This document shows, piece after piece, positions 1-7,668 of a DNA stretch of 64,000 nt. Position numbers and translations under genes: made by a program. The notes under the pieces were generated by a model. The model ran no database searches. It saw only the letters and a list, made by a program, of their open reading frames with translations, and had not been told where the DNA came from. Numbering within the stretch: position 1 is the stretch's first letter; each line of letters starts with the position of its first letter. This DNA is from Escherichia phage vB_EcoM_G53: sequence record MK327943.1; one strand, written 5' to 3'.

Positions 1-252
1 AAGTTTAGCATTACCCAAGATTCCGCGAACGGCTTTATCAATGTCTTCATTAAATAGCTTTTCAGCCTCATCAAGGGTAATTGTACCGTTGCATTTATGA
101 CCGATCATTCTGTCAAGTTCAGCTTTAGCTACGGCTAAAGACGGGTTCTTTGTTACCAAATGGCCTATGCCAATCGTCCAAAAGCCTTCGGTGTCTTTGT
201 ATAAAGTCAGTCTAAGACCTTCGTCATTACGAAGCATTTCAAATATATTCAT
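1..252 (-). CDS. e: endolysin (T4-type lysozyme e), N-terminal 84 codons; 3' end lies beyond the window start
   Basis: Minus-strand ATG at 252 reads [24 protein letters not shown], near-identical to the T4 lysozyme N-terminus; frame open to position 1. Confidence 0.9.
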
Positions 253-280
253 AATACCTCCCACGTTTATAGGAGGTATT
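253..280 (-). promoter_or_regulatory. stem-loop sequestering the Shine-Dalgarno of gene e (AAUACCUCC / GGAGGUAUU, 9-bp stem) with a late-promoter-like TATAAACG in the loop
   Basis: Perfect 9-bp inverted repeat 253-261 / 272-280 whose 3' arm is the GGAGG of the e RBS; T4 is known to control lysozyme translation this way. Confidence 0.55.
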
Positions 281-286
281 TATTAC

Positions 287-745
287 TTATAGGAGTGTAG
301 TGAGCACCTTATATAATGATTTACCCATTACATATTCCCATTGAGAAGGTTTAATTAAAGCGAATGCATCAAATTCAGGAATCTGTCGTCCGTCTGGGAA
401 TGTATGATAGGAATTACAAACACTGTTTCTGAATTGCTCGTGCTCTACAGGGATGGTATATAGGAACAGATGAATATTCTTATTGTCTGAGTAATGATGT
501 TCACCTAGGTCTTTCAGGAAGGCAGGGTCATATTGTGTAAACCCGGTTTCTTCTTCGCATTCGCGAATAGCGGCTTCAATAGGAGATTCGCCAGGTTCGA
601 CACGGCCTTTAGGAATATCCCACCGATGAGCTAATGCACCTTTAGGACGAGAACCAGTTACACGGCCCATGAATAACTCTTTATCTTTTGACATGAAGAT
701 AATACCGGCTGATAGCTCTTTCACTTTATTTTTCTTACTCATCAT
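287..745 (-). CDS. nudE: Nudix hydrolase NudE
   Basis: 152 aa; Nudix box GRVEPGESPIEAAIRECEEETG; directly after e as in T4. Confidence 0.85.
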   Translation of the reverse strand: MMSKKNKVKELSAGIIFMSKDKELFMGRVTGSRPKGALAHRWDIPKGRVEPGESPIEAAIRECEEETGFTQYDPAFLKDLGEHHYSDNKNIHLFLYTIPVEHEQFRNSVCNSYHTFPDGRQIPEFDAFALIKPSQWEYVMGKSLYKVLTTLL

Positions 746-971
746 CTCGGTCCCATGATTTGGCCATTAATTCGGACATAAATTCTTCAATGCGCGTTTC
801 TTTAGATGGACTTTCACTATTAGAGACCGCAAGTTTGTAATCTGCAATAGGACAGAACATATCAAGGTCCATATTAAGGTCGTCTTTGATTTTTTCTTCT
901 GACACATCTTTATCGTATGTGTACAGATAACTATCACATGATTCTGATTTAATGTAAATTGCTATACTCAT
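735..971 (-). CDS. hypothetical protein (78 aa)
   Basis: ORF track 735..986; start moved to ATG 971 (SD AGGAA, ATGA overlap with upstream stop). Confidence 0.5.
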   Translation of the reverse strand: MSIAIYIKSESCDSYLYTYDKDVSEEKIKDDLNMDLDMFCPIADYKLAVSNSESPSKETRIEEFMSELMAKSWDRDDE

Positions 972-1447
972 CTCAAATTCCTGCATTCGGTAATAAAACG
1001 TTCAACTTCATTATTCTTGGCTTTTATCTTGTCTTTATGTTCTTGTAAACTACTTTTAATAAGATTAATAATGATAGCGACGGTGCCGCCGCCAATGATG
1101 CCACCAATAATACTTACGATAGTAGATGCTAATAAGATAGCAATAATATCAACAAAACCGAAAGAACTCACCTTAGTACTAAAAAACCATACCGACGGTA
1201 CAAATATAATCCATCCTGTTATCCATTGGCACTTATTGAAAAACTTTTCAAGCTCAGCTTGAGTTGTTCGTATTACTTCATCGATAGGTTGATATCCATT
1301 AATGTATCTGTTCACGATAATACCTGCTGGCTGGTCGATTTTAAATTCTTGGCAAATATGTTTCACTAAGTAGGATGGACATCCTGTCCAATCTACTGAA
1401 TAGTATGAAATACCTTCGTTGCCATCGTCTATATTATTGTTAATCAT
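968..1447 (-). CDS. small membrane protein with C-terminal ExFIxECR tail (family member 1)
   Basis: 159 aa; hydrophobic stretches WIIFVPSVWFF and IIAILLASTIVSIIGGIIGGGTVAIIINLI; ends ERFITECRNLR; TAATG overlap with upstream gene. Confidence 0.55.
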   Translation of the reverse strand: MINNNIDDGNEGISYYSVDWTGCPSYLVKHICQEFKIDQPAGIIVNRYINGYQPIDEVIRTTQAELEKFFNKCQWITGWIIFVPSVWFFSTKVSSFGFVDIIAILLASTIVSIIGGIIGGGTVAIIINLIKSSLQEHKDKIKAKNNEVERFITECRNLR

Positions 1448-2133
1448 TACCAGCCTTCCATAGGGAATTCCAGATAAACTTGAGCATTGACACGAATTTC
1501 ATTGGTAATCTTTTTAACTCGGTCTGTATTACGAGATACACGTCCGAACCAACGCCATCCATTACTAATTGCACGAGAACCAGTGTGCCATGTTTGCCAA
1601 TCAAACTGAAGAAGAGTACGGTCTGGAGCTTCCCATTTCTCTAGTTCACCTTTTTCAATTTTTTCGAGGACTTCTTTGTGCCACTGACGATAGATAAGTT
1701 CGCCATCAGGAATCTGACTGAACTCTGCAGTTCCTGTTGCAAAATGAGTAGGACACACATCAGCGTTAACAAGACCAAGAATATGTTCAGAATGGTAACG
1801 AGGGTTGTCATAGTCAGGTTGTCCTGCAGTAATAAAGTGTTGTCCAACTGGAATATCAGGGCGTGGAACATCGTCATGGTGATATCCAGGAATAGCAGGG
1901 TACCAACCAGGCATCAGCATATGAACCCGAGAATCAAATACAACATGTTGATTAGTCCAATCAATTGGGAGATTGGCAATAAAGCTACGAGTGATTGAGC
2001 CACCATTATCCCAAGCAAAACCCAAATCACAATTAAAGAACATTGGTTCATTTTTGATTCGGTCATTTTGTACGTTATGTGCAAAACTACCAACTGCACG
2101 AGCTTGACTATTAAACACTTTAGAACTATTCAT
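1447..2133 (-). CDS. hypothetical protein (228 aa); tentative 2OG-Fe(II) oxygenase-like residue pattern
   Basis: Long ORF with ATG and coupling to flanking genes; HHDD ... WHTGSR ... GRVSR pattern loosely resembles HxD...H...RxS; not verified. Confidence 0.55.
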   Translation of the reverse strand: MNSSKVFNSQARAVGSFAHNVQNDRIKNEPMFFNCDLGFAWDNGGSITRSFIANLPIDWTNQHVVFDSRVHMLMPGWYPAIPGYHHDDVPRPDIPVGQHFITAGQPDYDNPRYHSEHILGLVNADVCPTHFATGTAEFSQIPDGELIYRQWHKEVLEKIEKGELEKWEAPDRTLLQFDWQTWHTGSRAISNGWRWFGRVSRNTDRVKKITNEIRVNAQVYLEFPMEGW

Positions 2134-2134
2134 A

Positions 2135-2440
2135 TTATTTTCCTCGACATTCTTTAATGAAATTTTCTAGATTGGTAGATTCAATAGCTTTTTTACGAGC
2201 TTCTGTGTGTTCTTCTTCGGACAATTTACGTTTATAATTGACCCAGACATTATGGTCGAAACCAGACGTGGCATATAATAACAAAGCTCCAACGAATAGC
2301 AAAAATGGTGATAAAAATATACAACCAGGAACACCATCCATACTGTAAGCCTTTTGTAATACTGCAACAGAAAGAGTTGCGTAAAAAGGTGATGCAAGTA
2401 TTGTTAAAAGGCCAATTCGGTTGGTTTCGCCTAATTTCAT
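2135..2440 (-). CDS. small membrane protein with C-terminal ExFIxECR tail (family member 2)
   Basis: 101 aa; two hydrophobic segments; ends LENFIKECRGK; first gene after PeSL promoter at 2461-2498. Confidence 0.55.
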   Translation of the reverse strand: MKLGETNRIGLLTILASPFYATLSVAVLQKAYSMDGVPGCIFLSPFLLFVGALLLYATSGFDHNVWVNYKRKLSEEEHTEARKKAIESTNLENFIKECRGK

Positions 2441-2460
2441 AATATTCTCCTCATGTTTTA

Positions 2461-2498
2461 ATAGGACTACTATAATATAGCCCTATCAGTTTGTACAC
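2461..2498 (-). promoter_or_regulatory. early promoter with inverted repeat (PeSL-type), weaker -35 (TGTACA)
   Basis: Minus strand TGTACA-N17-TATAGT; inverted repeat ATAGGACT / AGCCCTAT brackets the -10. Confidence 0.45.
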
Positions 2499-2699
2499 TT
2501 ATTTTGACATTTCTTCGATGTCACGACGATACCCATCACGAACTTCACGAAGAGCTTCAAGGCCACACATAGGCTCGATACCAGTAATGTGAACTTGATT
2601 AATCTGATACTCTACATCTTCTAACTGAGCGAAAACATAACGACGTTCTGCTGCACAACCAGGTTTAGCTTTACCGAAACGTTTATTCAAAGTAGTCAT
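2499..2699 (-). CDS. hypothetical protein (66 aa)
   Basis: ORF track 2499..2717; start placed at ATG 2699 preceded by GGAG; lies between two PeSL promoters. Confidence 0.5.
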   Translation of the reverse strand: MTTLNKRFGKAKPGCAAERRYVFAQLEDVEYQINQVHITGIEPMCGLEALREVRDGYRRDIEEMSK

Positions 2700-2728
2700 T
2701 TTTATATCTCCATTCACTCATTTGTTTT

Positions 2729-2766
2729 GATAGGTCTATAGTATCAACAACTACAGACCTTGTAAA
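2729..2766 (-). promoter_or_regulatory. early promoter (PeSL-type)
   Basis: Minus strand TTTACA (2761-2766) - 17 bp - TACTAT (2738-2743); short inverted repeat TGATA / TATCA around the -10. Confidence 0.6.
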
Positions 2767-2779
2767 CTGTTTTGCGAAA

Positions 2780-3736
2780 TTATTTGAAAGGTTTTACCAT
2801 ATGGAAATTTTGTTTGAAACGTTTGACGTAATCGTCGTGTCCTAAGCTTTGGTACATACTTACTACTTTGCTATAATTTTCCCAAGCGAACTCACGGAAC
2901 CATCCTGATGTGATTGATGTACAGACCTTTTCAAGGGCCATCATAAAACTATCACGTGGATGGATTTTAAAGTCGTTAGGAATCTGTGAACGTTCAAGAG
3001 CTAATACACAAGCTTCTTCATATACACCGGCTAATTTAACCATTTCTGGTAATGATTCGAACTTCTCGCGTGATGTCATAACTTCTGAGCCTTCTTTCAT
3101 ATAAAACTTATAAGCAGGCTGGTCAGTTAGTGCAATGGCTTCATGGATAGTATCATGGTCATACGTATAGATGTCATCTTTAAAGAACGCACTTTTAGAA
3201 GTGTCAAGAACTGGGTGAGCATAATTCAAGGTTTCTTTCTGGCGTTTCAGCATAATTTCAGTAAGTTCATCGTTCAGTGTAACACCTTTACCACGAAGAT
3301 ACTGAATATGGTTCATAGTCTTTAAAAAGAATGGATTATTTTTCTTGAAACGATGAGACATCTTAATTGCAAGACATATCTCAGGAGTTGCCCAGTAAAA
3401 CCCGTTCAAACGGTCTTTAGTCAAATTTTTCTTGGCGTATTTTAAAAGGTCATAAGAAGACGTGAAATCTTCAGGAGTGAGTTCACCGACTAGTTCGCGA
3501 ACGTTAGTGAGAGCCGGAACGATGTATGCTTCAAAATGAGTTTCGCGTCCATTATGGAAGCATTTGAAAACTTGGACATCAGGGTTATCTTGGTGAACAT
3601 ATACACCCATCATTTGATTTTTGAATGCATTCCAAGAACCTTGGTCCGCAATAAAGTCCCAATCACTATTTTTAATAGCGCTAGAATCAATAAGACCGTG
3701 ATAGTGAAGTGCACGAGAACCAATAACTAACATCAT
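2780..3736 (-). CDS. hypothetical protein (318 aa); N-terminal GS...DWD is weakly nucleotidyltransferase-like
   Basis: Long ORF, SD GAGGAAAAT upstream of ATG 3736; motif IGSRALHYHG...SDWDF; no secure domain call. Confidence 0.6.
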   Translation of the reverse strand: MMLVIGSRALHYHGLIDSSAIKNSDWDFIADQGSWNAFKNQMMGVYVHQDNPDVQVFKCFHNGRETHFEAYIVPALTNVRELVGELTPEDFTSSYDLLKYAKKNLTKDRLNGFYWATPEICLAIKMSHRFKKNNPFFLKTMNHIQYLRGKGVTLNDELTEIMLKRQKETLNYAHPVLDTSKSAFFKDDIYTYDHDTIHEAIALTDQPAYKFYMKEGSEVMTSREKFESLPEMVKLAGVYEEACVLALERSQIPNDFKIHPRDSFMMALEKVCTSITSGWFREFAWENYSKVVSMYQSLGHDDYVKRFKQNFHMVKPFK

Positions 3737-3764
3737 AATATTTTCCTCGGATTAATTCATTAAC

Positions 3765-4004
3765 TTAAATTTCACGACATGCGATATTATATTCATCCCA
3801 GAGGTCATCATGTGAAGCCTCTACCAATGGAACGATTGTACCGTTTATGTCTTCATTATAAGGGCAAATTGTACAGTGCGCATCTTCGAATCGGATGCCT
3901 TTGTGTTCAGATTTTTTATAACGCATATCGAATATCTTTGCAAACTTTTCACGAGTAATGGTTTTACCAACCACTTTGGTTCCGATACTTTCGTAATAAA
4001 TCAT
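3765..4004 (-). CDS. hypothetical protein (79 aa), Cys/His-containing
   Basis: ORF track 3765..4016; ATG 4004 has GGAG 8 nt upstream while ATG 4016 has no SD; contains HCTICPYNED. Confidence 0.5.
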   Translation of the reverse strand: MIYYESIGTKVVGKTITREKFAKIFDMRYKKSEHKGIRFEDAHCTICPYNEDINGTIVPLVEASHDDLWDEYNIACREI

Positions 4005-4023
4005 TGTGGACTCCATTTGTTTT

Positions 4024-4061
4024 GATAGGACTACTATAACATAGCCCTATCTTGTTGTAAA
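4024..4061 (-). promoter_or_regulatory. early promoter (PeSL-type)
   Basis: Minus strand TTTACA (4056-4061) - 17 bp - TATAGT (4033-4038); inverted repeat ATAGGACT / AGCCCTAT brackets the -10. Confidence 0.65.
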
Positions 4062-4066
4062 CTGTT

Positions 4067-4264
4067 TTAGCAAGAATAACTAGATGATACCCAGCCTTGA
4101 ACAGTGATACTATTGTGGGATAATGAGATCGCGTCCTGGAGATTCAGACCTGCGTTATCTTCAATCCATAATGTAACTTCTTCGCGTTCTTCTGTTGCAA
4201 TTTGGAACAGGTTTTCCAGAGCAGCTACTGCCGTACGTACAGCACAATCTAATTCACGAGACAT
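4067..4264 (-). CDS. small protein, GxWVxSSxxC C-terminal family (paralog 3 of 3, 65 aa)
   Basis: Ends VQGWVSSSYSC; SD TAAGGAAAC overlapping upstream stop; third of three tandem paralogs. Confidence 0.55.
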   Translation of the reverse strand: MSRELDCAVRTAVAALENLFQIATEEREEVTLWIEDNAGLNLQDAISLSHNSITVQGWVSSSYSC

Positions 4265-4273
4265 ATTGTTTCC

Positions 4274-4546
4274 TTAGCAAGTGTGAGAAGATGCGACCCA
4301 ACCACCAGTTTCGAGGCTCAGGTTGTAGTCGTATTGGTAAACGTCAGCCCATTCAGCATAGCCGTTTTTTGTACAACGTTCAAGATCGGCTTTAAGATGT
4401 CCGGGTGAATGATAGGTTCCACCCATACCATAAGCTGGGTACAAGTTGAACGTTGTGTTTTGTTTATCAGCAATTTCTTTGGCAGCCTCAATAGCTGCAT
4501 AGATTTTTGCTACAGCTTCAGCCAGTTCGGTTTGTTCTTTAGACAT
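4274..4546 (-). CDS. small protein, GxWVxSSxxC C-terminal family (paralog 2 of 3, 90 aa)
   Basis: Ends TGGWVASSHTC; shares YGxGGTY with paralog 1; SD TAAGGAAT overlapping upstream stop. Confidence 0.55.
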   Translation of the reverse strand: MSKEQTELAEAVAKIYAAIEAAKEIADKQNTTFNLYPAYGMGGTYHSPGHLKADLERCTKNGYAEWADVYQYDYNLSLETGGWVASSHTC

Positions 4547-4555
4547 AACGATTCC

Positions 4556-4861
4556 TTAGCACAACGCAGAAGACGAAACCCAAGCACCTTCAGTAATAAC
4601 GTAACCATTACCTTCACGCTTAACATCGCCACCATTATTTTCAATTTCATCTTTCATCCACTGGGATACGATTTCACCCTTAGGATAATAAGTACGACCG
4701 CTACCATAATCACCTACAGAAAATGATACGGCATATTGGTCTGCGATCTTTGTTGCTTCTTCTTCGATACGTTCAGCTTGATTCAGAAGTTTATAAATTG
4801 CATCTGAAGCGGATTTGGCATCATTAAACTCTGGTACTTTAATTTCAATAATCTTACTCAT
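4556..4861 (-). CDS. small protein, GxWVxSSxxC C-terminal family (paralog 1 of 3, 101 aa)
   Basis: Ends EGAWVSSSALC; ATGA start/stop overlap with upstream membrane protein gene. Confidence 0.55.
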   Translation of the reverse strand: MSKIIEIKVPEFNDAKSASDAIYKLLNQAERIEEEATKIADQYAVSFSVGDYGSGRTYYPKGEIVSQWMKDEIENNGGDVKREGNGYVITEGAWVSSSALC

Positions 4862-5217
4862 TTTCTACATTCCTTAATAAAGTTTTCGATTGTTTCATTT
4901 TCACGTTTAGCTAGAAGTTCATTATAACTAATCATTTGAGAAGCGTAAATCTTTTTATTTTTCTTGTTATGGTTTATAAAATCGTAGTAAAAATAGACTA
5001 CAGTACAAAATGATGCGATGGATGCAAAGGCTTGGGTATACCGTAAGTCCTGCCATTGGTCTGTGAATCCACCAGTGTTCCCTATAAATCCTAACACAAC
5101 GCCGTCAATAAGAAATCCAACTAATCCAAAGGCAAATCCCATGCCAATACTCATAATAAAAATTAGAATGTTCTCACCAAGAGAAGGCCATACGGTTAAG
5201 AGTTGAGGCTTTTGCAT
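4858..5217 (-). CDS. small membrane protein with C-terminal ExFIxECR tail (family member 3)
   Basis: 119 aa; hydrophobic segments; ends IENFIKECRK; SD TTAAGGAAATAAG upstream. Confidence 0.55.
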   Translation of the reverse strand: MQKPQLLTVWPSLGENILIFIMSIGMGFAFGLVGFLIDGVVLGFIGNTGGFTDQWQDLRYTQAFASIASFCTVVYFYYDFINHNKKNKKIYASQMISYNELLAKRENETIENFIKECRK

Positions 5218-5591
5218 CTTATTTCCTTAACGAATTCCATAGCTTCTTCATATTCATACTTTTTAACAGCTTCATCATACTGAGCTTGGGCTTTTGCGCA
5301 CTGAACTTTCCATTCTCTTAATCGGGCTCTGTGATGACGGCCTTGGTGCCAATATCCTACCCAATTAATAGGCATTAATAAAAACGGTACAATAAGTGGT
5401 GCGACGAACATTAATGAAAATGCTGCATCAGACGATATAACTTCACTAGAATCTAAAACAGCTCCTATAATCATAAAGATTAAAAATGCTAAAGCTAAAA
5501 TAGGGCCAAATAATACTTCATTTGGGATTAATTTACGCTTGTATTCATACGCCCAGGGCTTACTTGGCATGTATAGGGTTGGCTTTGACAT
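5196..5591 (-). CDS. small membrane protein with ExFVKEIRC-type C-terminal tail (family member 4)
   Basis: ORF track 5196..5621; start moved to ATG 5591 (MSKPTLYM) just after the conserved tail codons of the upstream gene; hydrophobic segments. Confidence 0.5.
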   Translation of the reverse strand: MSKPTLYMPSKPWAYEYKRKLIPNEVLFGPILALAFLIFMIIGAVLDSSEVISSDAAFSLMFVAPLIVPFLLMPINWVGYWHQGRHHRARLREWKVQCAKAQAQYDEAVKKYEYEEAMEFVKEIRCKSLNS

Positions 5592-6162
5592 ATTCTCTAC
5601 ATTCCATAATAAATTGCTCAAGGATTAAATTGTTAGTGAAATTAGGACTAACAACCATAGTTTCATAAAGCGCATCAATAGCACTTAAAGCATCAACTCT
5701 TTTAAGCAAAGGCTTGCCTTCATACATAGTTTCAGAATCGATGATTAACGTAAAGTAATATTTTTTATTATCGACTAGAACTTCTGTATCGATATAAAAC
5801 ATATTAGACCTCAGAAGCTTATCTCTAAAGCCATAATAATCTTCAGAGCGTTCGCTGATATATTCCCATTCAGTGTTTAAACAACAAACAGACCACGTAG
5901 GAGCAACGAAATCAGTGAATCTAATATCATGGTCTGCAACTAGTTTAGCAATAGCTCCGATATCATGAATCATAATACCTGGGGCTAATAAAGATTTTCT
6001 GCTATGGCTAGCCGTTTTCTCGGTGGTCTCATAAGAAGACGACCAGTACCATTTACGTCCGGTTGCAACATATCGTAATGAATCAACTAAAGACGTAGGT
6101 GGATTTACCTTATCTCGGAACTCTTCGAACATTGAGTCAATATCATTATTTTGGTTTCGCAT
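5560..6162 (-). CDS. hypothetical protein (200 aa) with ExFIMECR motif near C-terminus
   Basis: ORF track 5560..6183 begins at TTG; ATG 6162 has a strong AAGGAG SD; contains LEQFIMECREY. Confidence 0.55.
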   Translation of the reverse strand: MRNQNNDIDSMFEEFRDKVNPPTSLVDSLRYVATGRKWYWSSSYETTEKTASHSRKSLLAPGIMIHDIGAIAKLVADHDIRFTDFVAPTWSVCCLNTEWEYISERSEDYYGFRDKLLRSNMFYIDTEVLVDNKKYYFTLIIDSETMYEGKPLLKRVDALSAIDALYETMVVSPNFTNNLILEQFIMECREYVKANPIHAK

Positions 6163-6181
6163 GTTAACTCCTTTATTATCC

Positions 6182-6203
6182 AAAAGGAGGACCGGAGTCC
6201 TCC
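6182..6203 (-). terminator. hairpin plus short U-run (weak terminator or attenuator) between operon genes
   Basis: GGAGGAC-CGGA-GTCCTCC perfect 7-bp stem followed by UUUU on the minus strand; sits in the leader of the next gene. Confidence 0.45.
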
Positions 6204-6211
6204 GTATTATT

Positions 6212-6805
6212 TTATTTCAAAGAGTTAATATATTCTTGTACATCAGCAGAAGTGGTTTCGACGCCGGCTGGAGTGCCATTGAACGTTTCAACACGAGTCA
6301 GAGTGTCTTCGATATCAACCTTAGTCAGTGCAGCTATTTCAATTACATCATCGGCCGTAGAGATACCAAGGGCATTAGCTGCTCGAGTTTCACGAATGTA
6401 TTCGAGTTTGATTGCCAGATTCTGACGAGCATCGTCAAGTTCAACCACCTTACGAGCAATTTCAATTCGCATAGCGGCATACCCGTCAGCTTTTGTATTA
6501 AGTTGTTCGGCAGTTCGACGATACAGAAGACCAAGCTTAGCATGCATAGTAACATCTTGTCCTTCAGCCAGGAGCTTACGAATTTCACGTTCCTTAGAAG
6601 CGGCTTGCTTGTTCTTTTCATTAACAAGTTCGCGAATACGTTTTTCTTCATTAATAGATTTAACAGAAGCCGTTTTTAGTTCTTTGATTTGGGTAATCAA
6701 CTTATCTGCAGCTGCGTTATACTGTTCTTCGACAGTCAGATTTTTAGCCATAGCAGTACCCAGTTTAGTGCGGATGAATTCAACAAGTTTCTTCAGTGTG
6801 TTCAT
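6212..6805 (-). CDS. coiled-coil protein (197 aa); weak resemblance to PspA/IM30-type proteins, unverified
   Basis: ORF track 6212..6820 begins at TTG; ATG 6805 preceded by AAGGT; Lys/Glu/Ala/Arg-rich heptad-like sequence; first gene after promoter at 6841-6875. Confidence 0.55.
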
Positions 6806-6840
6806 ATTATTACCTTTCAATTGGTGGTTTATTATCCAAT

Positions 6841-6875
6841 GAGAGCATTATACTCTGCTCTCAAGAGTTTGTAAA
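6841..6875 (-). promoter_or_regulatory. early promoter (PeSL-type) with consensus -10
   Basis: Minus strand TTTACA (6870-6875) - 17 bp - TATAAT (6847-6852); inverted repeat GAGAGC / GCTCTC brackets the -10. Confidence 0.65.
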
Positions 6876-7103
6876 TTATTTTTTAATCAAATTGACATAA
6901 AACTTGGCGTCTTCTGGGTGCATGCCTTCGCAGTATTCTTCAACCATGAACTTCTTAACAGCTTCATAAGGACCACTCAGATTAAGCTCAGTTGTCCAGA
7001 ACTTGGAATCTTGGGCTGAATCGATATGAACTTCAGGGTGACGGTTGCGAATAACTTCTTCTGTGTATTCATAATCAACGACATCAATACTAACTTTAGC
7101 CAT
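6876..7103 (-). CDS. hypothetical protein (75 aa)
   Basis: ATG 7103 preceded by GAGAGGAAAA; single-gene cassette between two PeSL promoters. Confidence 0.5.
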   Translation of the reverse strand: MAKVSIDVVDYEYTEEVIRNRHPEVHIDSAQDSKFWTTELNLSGPYEAVKKFMVEEYCEGMHPEDAKFYVNLIKK

Positions 7104-7126
7104 TTTGTTTTCCTCTCATTTGATTT

Positions 7127-7164
7127 GATAGGTCTATAGTAACACCGTCCTTGGTGTTTGTACA
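7127..7164 (-). promoter_or_regulatory. early promoter (PeSL-type), weaker -35 (TGTACA)
   Basis: Minus strand TGTACA - 17 bp - TACTAT (7136-7141); TGATA / TATCA-type flanking repeat. Confidence 0.5.
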
Positions 7165-7668
7165 TCATTTATTTTTAATTTTGCAAATTTTTCCAGCTTC
7201 AATGCACGCAGCATAGATGATGCTCTGGGCAATTTTATTGCTAGTGGACCTTGCAATCACACTAAGAACAATTTCTTTTTCTTCACCACCACATCCCCAG
7301 CTATTTTGCCCATGTGTACCTTTAACTACGGCTGAAACTTCAACAGAACGTCCACCATCAGAAGTCTTAACATCCACAACCCAATCACCGTCTTTCTCAT
7401 TAACCTGTGGTTTATCCCAAGAAATACTAATATATGATTCACCGTCAATAGAAGTCGCCGGGTTTTTCTCTACAGTAAGACCTTCGCTTTCTAACCATTC
7501 AATAGTATTTGAGCATAAATCTGTAGAACATCTCATCGGAAAGCGGCATGATTTTTCACCTTTAGATGCAGCATCATACATCTTTTCCAAAATACGCTTT
7601 TGTACATTTTTAAAAACAACGTCACGCGATTCTTCAGATTTTTTATTCAGTTCAGTATAAAGACTCAT
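7165..7668 (-). CDS. hypothetical protein (167 aa)
   Basis: ATG 7668 preceded by GAGGAAAA; single-gene cassette after PeSL promoter at 7690-7726. Confidence 0.55.
   Translation of the reverse strand: MSLYTELNKKSEESRDVVFKNVQKRILEKMYDAASKGEKSCRFPMRCSTDLCSNTIEWLESEGLTVEKNPATSIDGESYISISWDKPQVNEKDGDWVVDVKTSDGGRSVEVSAVVKGTHGQNSWGCGGEEKEIVLSVIARSTSNKIAQSIIYAACIEAGKICKIKNK

Follow-up and report, generated by a model that had tools for sequence, protein, structure and literature searches.

The gene at positions 1447-2133 (minus strand) of Escherichia phage vB_EcoM_G53 (record MK327943.1; the whole stretch of 64,000 nucleotides that was analyzed is called the window below) encodes a 228-amino acid (aa) protein that is probably an active Fe(II)/2-oxoglutarate (2OG) oxygenase. 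We place the probability of this assignment at roughly 0.8 on the basis of residue conservation and a predicted structure. A sequence-only reading of the same DNA had picked out the strings HHDD, WHTGSR, and GRVSR in the open reading frame (ORF) and suggested that they make up the HxD...H...RxS arrangement of 2OG-Fe(II) oxygenases. The ORF is real, its strand is minus (a correction added to that reading), and the three strings correspond to residues 85-88, 182-187, and 197-201 of the protein. The suggestion is supported by conservation of the motif residues in 251 homologues, by a predicted double-stranded β-helix (DSBH) fold, and by the structural matches returned by Foldseek. The product is very probably a soluble, stand-alone dioxygenase with a compact DSBH core, from a phage family that lies outside the curated sequence models. 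The window derives from a T4-like coliphage of the genus Mosigvirus; its bases 1-6000 show 98.6% identity to Escherichia phages vB_EcoM_MM02 and mobillu, and the 228-aa product is 100% identical to mobillu_78, whose record carries the name 'hypothetical protein'. The gene and the codons of its proposed active-site residues, as read on the DNA, are as follows.

1447..2133, minus strand: coding sequence (CDS) of the predicted Fe(II)/2-oxoglutarate oxygenase, 228 aa, ATG start; PHROG 1843; equals mobillu_78
1873..1881, minus strand: codons of H85-H86-D87 (H85, 1881-1879; D87, 1875-1873), the proposed HxD iron ligands, closing the conserved block MPGWYPAIPGYHHDDVPR; from conservation, spacing, and profile register
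1585..1587, minus strand: codon of H183 (1587-1585), the proposed distal iron ligand on predicted strand VII (residues 182-185); from conservation, strand position, and register
1534..1554, minus strand: codons of R194-W-F-G-R198-V-S200 (R194, 1554-1552; R198, 1542-1540; S200, 1536-1534) on predicted strand VIII, with a candidate binder of the 2OG C5 carboxylate and a second inward-facing Arg

Conservation of the putative iron and 2OG ligands

The pattern H.[DE]-(40-160)-H-(8-16)-R.[ST] was present in 11.9% of 20,000 composition-preserving shuffles. The motif in a single sequence is therefore within chance, and the motif evidence is carried by its conservation. Two alignments were examined, A1 with 137 sequences (24-92% identity) and A3 with 114 cluster representatives (32-54% identity), which together provide the 251 homologues. 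H85 and R194 were kept in all 251, H183 and R198 in 250 each, and D87 in 248 (the exceptions being one Glu, one Gly, and one Lys), and these five residues are the most conserved positions of the family. Position 200 was Ser or Thr in 228 of the 251, and position 196 (F196) was aromatic or Leu. Further near-invariant features are D67, R91, P106, Y148, R214, and the block MPGWxPAIPGWHxDxVPR. By these alignments R194, which was absent from the sequence-only reading, is the better conserved of the two Arg residues that might bind 2OG, and we rank it level with R198 or above it.

Predicted fold

The AlphaFold2 model, built on alignment A1, had a mean predicted local distance difference test (pLDDT) score of 90.9 and a predicted template modeling (pTM) score of 0.88, with all five models scoring at least 86.6. 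The N-terminal part (residues 5-60) is modeled as strands and helices. It is followed by the core strands 64-73, ∼77-85 (irregular, ending in the HxD), 116-122, 129-138, 165-168, 173-178, 182-185, and 192-201, with a helix (147-160) between strands 129-138 and 165-168. In the model these strands form an eight-strand DSBH core of canonical order: the HxD of the conserved, putative facial triad follows strand II, the distal His (H183) lies on strand VII, and R194, R198, and S200 lie on strand VIII, where the two conserved Arg residues stand 11 and 15 residues past the distal His, within or at the edge of a 10-15 residue interval. Residues 194, 196, 198, and 200 occupy alternate positions of one strand and so should face the same side. 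The sequence-only reading had left the spacing to a fold prediction; the one obtained is confident, gives the DSBH strand order, and sets the motif residues at the expected strand positions.

Among the 50 best Foldseek matches, 49 were 2OG or nonheme-iron oxygenases, chiefly of the PhyH type. The matches in the PDB, which included HygX, HalB, GriE, EctD, and H11, were weak (E ∼1e-3, TM score 0.3-0.45). Structural scores were 8.5 for EasH, 8.4 for both EctD and proline hydroxylase H11, 8.3 for ColD, and 8.1 for EvdO2; 7.7-7.0 for the P4H/PHD structures, 7.5 for PAHX, and 7.1 for ALKBH3; and 6.5, 6.4, and 6.3 for AsnO, CsiD, and clavaminate synthase, respectively. Most matches in BFVD were family members and uncharacterized phage proteins, with viral 2OG-Fe(II)/PhyH proteins lower down. 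Halogenases were also present among the fold matches. The halogenase type (SyrB2, WelO5, and HalB, with HxA/G) was ruled out by the retention of D87 as Asp in the homologues, and for the same reason we regard the site as hydroxylase-type.

Relationship to curated families

Several results weigh against the oxygenase assignment. The fold on which it draws is a predicted, not a solved, structure; the HxD falls within an irregular, loop-rich stretch of the model (residues 74-99), and confidence drops over residues 91-110 (pLDDT 66-74). The 228-aa protein matched no Pfam family at E ≤ 10 and no NCBIfam model, and none of the 137 members of A1 matched PhyH or 2OG-FeII_Oxy in Pfam at E ≤ 1. Searches of the PDB with phmmer and with a profile (hmmsearch) returned noise only. 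A comparison by hhalign of A1 with alignment A2, which comprised ten annotated ectoine hydroxylase/phytanoyl-CoA dioxygenase genes from plasmids, was non-significant (probability 0.9-2.9%, pairwise E 0.015-0.064). Literature searches yielded no biochemical or genetic data on any family member.

No match to curated models of 2OG-FeII_Oxy, P4H, AlkB, or TET/JBP, or by sequence to their solved members, was obtained, and PADLOC gave no match. Matches to isopentenyl-diphosphate isomerase, rhinovirus VP2, and pentapeptide-repeat proteins (E 0.1-1) were dismissed as noise. The only PHROG matches of the window protein were 1843 ('unknown function') and 23363.

The invariant residues of A2 include H144, D146, H245, and R256 (Sphingobium EctD numbering). 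The best local alignment from hhalign, itself non-significant, set ...FDWQTWHTGS beside ...FDCNIMHGS and paired H183 with H245. An ungapped profile-profile register scan, a cruder method used in place of hhalign, ranked the register H183 to H245 and R194 to R256 first of 277 (z = 4.7) and the register H85 to H144 and D87 to D146 second of 279 (z = 3.5). Both the PG-x8-HxD spacing and the Arg at His+11 are identical in the phage family and the EctD/PhyH set. The curated model of PF05721 (PhyH) does not include the protein. Because every curated sequence model fails, we go no further than placing the protein in the structural superfamily, where it represents a phage family of its own (PHROG 1843). 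We conclude that the family is PhyH-like in predicted fold and in motif spacing and that it is not a PhyH-family member by sequence model.

Proposed reaction

By analogy with the superfamily, H85, D87, and H183 would form the 2-His-1-carboxylate facial triad that holds Fe(II). The 2OG would chelate the iron, its C5 carboxylate being salt-bridged by an Arg on the inner face of strand VIII. The anchoring residue could be R194 (His+11, the PhyH/EctD spacing) or, alternatively, the R198-x-S200 pair (His+15). R194 is the PhyH-like candidate because the best register and the His+11 spacing match EctD/PhyH, and R198-x-S200 would resemble the RxS motif known from other 2OG oxygenases. The O2-driven decarboxylation of 2OG would give succinate, CO2, and an Fe(IV)=O species, which would hydroxylate or otherwise oxidize the primary substrate. 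In TauD, Arg266 binds 2OG and Arg270 binds the sulfonate of taurine; since the arginines are so divided there, one Arg of the phage pair may likewise contact 2OG while its partner contacts an anionic group on the substrate. The second Arg of the R194/R198 pair, along with R91, R214, Y148, and D67, would probably hold that group. Our best guess is that the substrate is a small anionic metabolite or a nucleotide-related compound rather than a protein.

Comparison with known oxygenases

PhyH-type enzymes (PF05721) include phytanoyl-CoA hydroxylase, EctD, EasH, proline hydroxylase H11, HygX, and EvdO2. The phage protein resembles them in being a predicted stand-alone soluble enzyme and in the order of its elements, namely strand I, PG-x8-HxD, the distal His on strand VII, and the Arg at +11 on strand VIII. 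It differs in lacking a detectable sequence-profile relationship (by Pfam, NCBIfam, PDB HMM searches, and hhalign), in being ∼30-80 residues shorter than the EctD/PhyH set (228 aa versus 257-313), and in being almost solely phage or prophage encoded. The phage family also has its own block, MPGWxPAIPGWHxDxVPR, and a second invariant Arg (R198-x-S/T) four residues beyond the first. Two Arg residues four positions apart on the last DSBH strand, at +11 and +15 from the distal His, are a feature shared with the TauD/clavaminate synthase type, but structures of that type score lower (6.3-6.5) and are ∼280-340 residues long. The AlkB and prolyl-4-hydroxylase families rank below the PhyH type structurally and have no sequence match, and their arginine spacing differs from that of the phage family.

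Marine phages, cyanomyoviruses among them, encode 2OG-Fe(II)/PhyH-like proteins (PHROG 61 and its relatives) that are likewise stand-alone oxygenases of this superfamily in T4-like phages. These proteins have been discussed as 2OG-consuming auxiliary metabolic genes (Sullivan et al. 2010, PMC3037559; Phold paper, PMC12774648). The window protein matches only PHROG 1843 and 23363, and tblastn found no cyanophage homologue even at E ≤ 10. Cyanophage proteins in BFVD were weak structural matches (E ∼6e-3 to 1e-2, TM score 0.27-0.46). Whereas the cyanophage proteins resemble the prolyl hydroxylase EGLN3 (PMC12774648), the family described here is nearest to the PhyH type.

Distribution and existing names of the family

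Clustering at 90% identity gives 1287 family clusters, and at 50% identity (E ≤ 1e-3) there are 601 representatives; the family is encoded almost exclusively by phages or prophages. Its members occur in Straboviridae of Escherichia, Aeromonas, Klebsiella, and other hosts, and at ∼30% identity the family reaches Vequintavirinae-like, Mycobacterium, and Gordonia phages as well as prophages. Among these are coliphages of the Mosigvirus, Dhakavirus, and Krischvirus types, which are used in therapy collections, and prophages of Mycobacteroides abscessus.

GenBank records of the homologues are nearly all named 'hypothetical protein', with a few named 'baseplate hub subunit'; the latter include PP693301.1 (Yersinia phage vB_YenM_P8) and OM386655.1 (Escherichia phage vB_EcoM_ESCO10), at 85-86% identity. 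Neither the sequence nor the model supports the name 'baseplate hub subunit', which looks like an annotation carried over from nearby lysozyme/hub genes. One source, UniRef, gives the name 'Phytanoyl-CoA dioxygenase family protein' to an Aeromonas phage homologue of 82% identity, and because this entry already bears a dioxygenase name, the oxygenase idea is not wholly new.

Ten longer homologues were searched for domain fusions as a clue to function, and no Pfam domain was found in them. Three (P0257, 418 aa; P0305, 444 aa; P0379, 387 aa) are tandem duplications of the family domain, in which the N-terminal copy retains HxD...H...R...R and the C-terminal copy is without the HxD. Their sequences suggest fused pseudo-dimers in which one site is active and the other degenerate, and the duplications hint that the single-domain protein may work as a dimer.

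Gene layout

The features around the gene are listed below.

2141..2145, minus strand: Shine-Dalgarno sequence GAGGA, 7 nucleotides (nt) upstream of the ATG of the 228-aa gene; read from the sequence
2135..2440, minus strand: upstream neighbor, a 101-aa membrane protein with the C terminus FIKECRGK; PHROG 9798
968..1447, minus strand: downstream neighbor, a 159-aa T4 e.2-like membrane protein with the C terminus FITECRNLR
2469..2497, minus strand: sigma-70-like promoter match, TGTACA-17-TATAGT, ahead of the 2135-2440, 1447-2133, and 968-1447 string; a consensus match only
287..745, minus strand: nudE-type NUDIX hydrolase, two genes downstream on the same strand (Pfam NUDIX, E = 5.9e-16); context only

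The oxygenase gene is thus packed between two small genes for e.2/e.3-like membrane proteins, in an accessory region upstream of nudE and e. The sequence-only reading was correct in describing both neighbors as tail-motif membrane proteins, as each ends in FI[KT]ECR. Each of them contains a 19-residue stretch with a mean Kyte-Doolittle hydropathy of 2.3-2.5. The oxygenase has no hydrophobic segment, and because its maximum hydropathy on the same scale is only 0.87, we take it to be soluble. Its Shine-Dalgarno sequence sits within the final codons (..ECRGK) of the upstream gene, whose stop codon ends 1 nt before the oxygenase start. At the other end, the TAA of the oxygenase gene overlaps the ATG of the 968-1447 gene (TAATG), an arrangement that suggests translational coupling. 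The gene is probably expressed before the late genes, as a non-structural function that modifies the host or its metabolism, to judge by its place in this accessory region. In T4, no homologue was found at the syntenic e.4-e.3-e.2-nudE-e position, to which the search was confined.

Five minus-strand ORFs (968-1447, 2135-2440, 4858-5217, 5196-5621, and 5560-6183) carry a C-terminal [FV][IV]xE[CI]R motif, and in three of them (968-1447, 2135-2440, and 4858-5217) the motif is the end of a small protein. The C terminus of T4 e.3 is FVIDCRKIK, and ORF 968-1447 has an N-terminal VDWxGC block in common with T4 e.2; on account of these two likenesses we assign the motif ORFs to the e.2/e.3 family. In three motif ORFs the ECR codons hold the Shine-Dalgarno sequence of the next gene (e.g., GAATGTCGAGGAAAATAATATG), and part of this 'protein' motif may owe its conservation to a role of the nucleotides in translation initiation. 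ORF 735-986 (minus strand) as listed begins MQEFEMSIAIY..., and an ATG overlaps the stop codon of the gene upstream (TTGAGATGAGT); this suggests that its true start is the internal Met (MSIAIY...), in agreement with the shorter mobillu CDS. The minus-strand gene at 2780-3736 encodes a 318-aa protein with Pfam DUF7277 (N-terminal) and DUF7275 (C-terminal) domains (PHROG 2141), and it is syntenic with the oxygenase gene across the T-even-like group (24 loci).

Genomic context and alternative explanations

ORFs were called and neighbors clustered at 80 viral-contig loci, and no universal neighbor of the oxygenase gene was found among them. In the T-even-like group the neighbors (e.2/e.3-like membrane proteins, the DUF7277/DUF7275 protein, and nudE) reflect local synteny only. 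Around the gene in environmental T4-like phages are Dda-, UvsW-, and DnaB-like helicases, DNA and RNA ligases, a gp46/47-like pair, UDG, and an N6/N4 methylase, and in mycobacteriophage Aziz RtcB, tRNA genes, and DprA lie near it. The context points to a nucleotide, NAD, or nucleic-acid metabolism module, and to nothing more precise. Two further arrangements were noted at these loci. In one (environmental contig L083), the oxygenase gene lies between a gp46-like gene (AAA_23/SMC_N, 4769-5893) and a gp47-like gene (Metallophos, 6672-7568); the phage recombination nuclease is composed of gp46 and gp47 subunits. In the other, a protein of ∼660-720 aa (PHROG 1735, no Pfam match) is encoded no more than five genes from an oxygenase homologue, at positions 729-2732 of L002 (Pectobacterium phage POP15, a distant Vequintavirinae-like phage) and also in the environmental T4-like contigs L051, L057, L069, and L076.

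The most widely shared neighbor is a NAMPT/NadV gene (Pfam NAPRTase, 1.4e-50, plus NAMPT_N), which was within 6 kb of the oxygenase gene at 11 of the 80 loci (10 of them non-redundant). The contigs concerned are divergent, environmental, and T4-like. At three of these loci (L051, L062, and L081) the oxygenase match starts at 6001 and the NAMPT ORF, as called, runs on to 6004, 4 bp past that start, which we read as an overlap of stop and start codons; at L097 it ends 200 bp upstream of the oxygenase gene, at L076 one gene lies between, and the remaining cases are L091/L096, L092, L094, L098, and L082. A NadM-type NMNAT-Nudix gene accompanies it in L076, L091/L096, L092, and L098. These genes raise the possibility, which we consider unlikely, that the oxygenase is tied to nicotinamide adenine dinucleotide (NAD+)/ADP-ribose or nucleotide metabolism beside NAMPT/NadV and NadM-Nudix ('NARP2') and Nudix hydrolases. 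Its substrate would then be, for example, a metabolite derived from nicotinamide, ribose, or a nucleotide, or else an immune signal, a proposal that refines the substrate class suggested above. In its favor, the NAMPT loci are scattered over many deep branches of the oxygenase tree, and their NAMPT proteins are divergent (26-44% identity to the reference). In the window, nudE is found two genes away, and a NUDIX gene abuts the oxygenase homologue on a 532-kb contig. The record of T4 nudE describes it as 'active on FAD, diadenosine polyphosphates, ADP-ribose and NADH'. According to a NAD-ADPr survey across viral genomes (PMC9503650), NadV is carried by only 22-33% of phages in the medium and jumbo classes, so that NAMPT proximity in ∼20% of environmental loci exceeds random placement. 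Against it, most loci have no NAMPT nearby: none was found by tblastn of the whole window, nor near the gene in any cultured coliphage, Aeromonas phage, or actinophage locus examined. The association could also be inherited synteny within one broad T4-like lineage, or mere co-residence in a DNA and nucleotide-metabolism module. No known NAD+ salvage step needs a 2OG oxygenase. No oxygenase is mentioned in the phage NAD+ reconstitution papers or in the NAD-ADPr survey, and our literature searches found none tied to NadV or the NARP pathways. The stronger form of the proposal, that the family is an unrecognized NAD+/ADP-ribose partner, co-transcribed with NadV and NadM-Nudix in many aquatic T4-like phages and placed near nudE in coliphages, where it would oxidize an immune signal or a metabolite of pyridine, ribose, or nucleotide origin, appears to us rather more doubtful.

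The neighbors that encode DNA replication, repair, and modification proteins in environmental phages, and the RtcB, tRNA, and DprA genes in Aziz, would fit instead a 2OG oxygenase directed at nucleic acids, whether for AlkB-like DNA/RNA repair or demethylation or for base hydroxylation of the TET/JBP or phage T-dioxygenase type. Phage-encoded DNA-base dioxygenases are known (PMC13229309), which also counts for this explanation. We hold it to be improbable, given that the family has no sequence match to AlkB or TET/JBP, and a role in one specific DNA hypermodification is disfavored because the family spans T-even relatives, Aeromonas phages, and actinophages with differing DNA chemistries. The TET/JBP form was rejected on the fold ranking. 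A protein hydroxylase of the prolyl, lysyl, asparaginyl, or ribosomal type, acting on a host or phage protein, seems to us quite improbable: there is no P4H or 2OG-FeII_Oxy_3 sequence signal and no conserved partner gene as a possible substrate, and the paired inward-facing Arg residues and the His+11 spacing fit the PhyH/EctD set instead. It is very improbable that the product is a cupin/jelly-roll protein that does not use 2OG, either another metal enzyme or a non-catalytic binder with a superficial likeness to the motif. The absence of a match to any curated 2OG oxygenase model, the frequency of the motif in shuffled sequences (12%), the moderate structural scores, and the persistence of the fold without the site in the second copy of the tandem homologues, which has lost the HxD, are all points in its favor.

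Significance

The assignment as an Fe(II)/2OG oxygenase concerns a common phage family that until now has been without functional annotation, and it makes an unknown protein into an enzyme that can be tested, for which four point mutants suggest themselves. The class itself is unsurprising because phage 2OG oxygenases are already well known in cyanophages, and the novelty is modest: this is a new family in a very well-known superfamily, in a T4-like setting where such enzymes were already known. The recurring proximity to NAD+ salvage and Nudix genes is a lead on where to seek the substrate and not a result. An oxygenase that proved to be an NAD+/ADP-ribose partner would represent a new chemical step for phages in the contest over NAD+; equally new, if true, would be the oxidative modification or repair of nucleic acids by an enzyme with no relation to AlkB or TET/JBP. 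The value of the finding lies in the annotation and in the question of why T4-like phages need an oxidation step.

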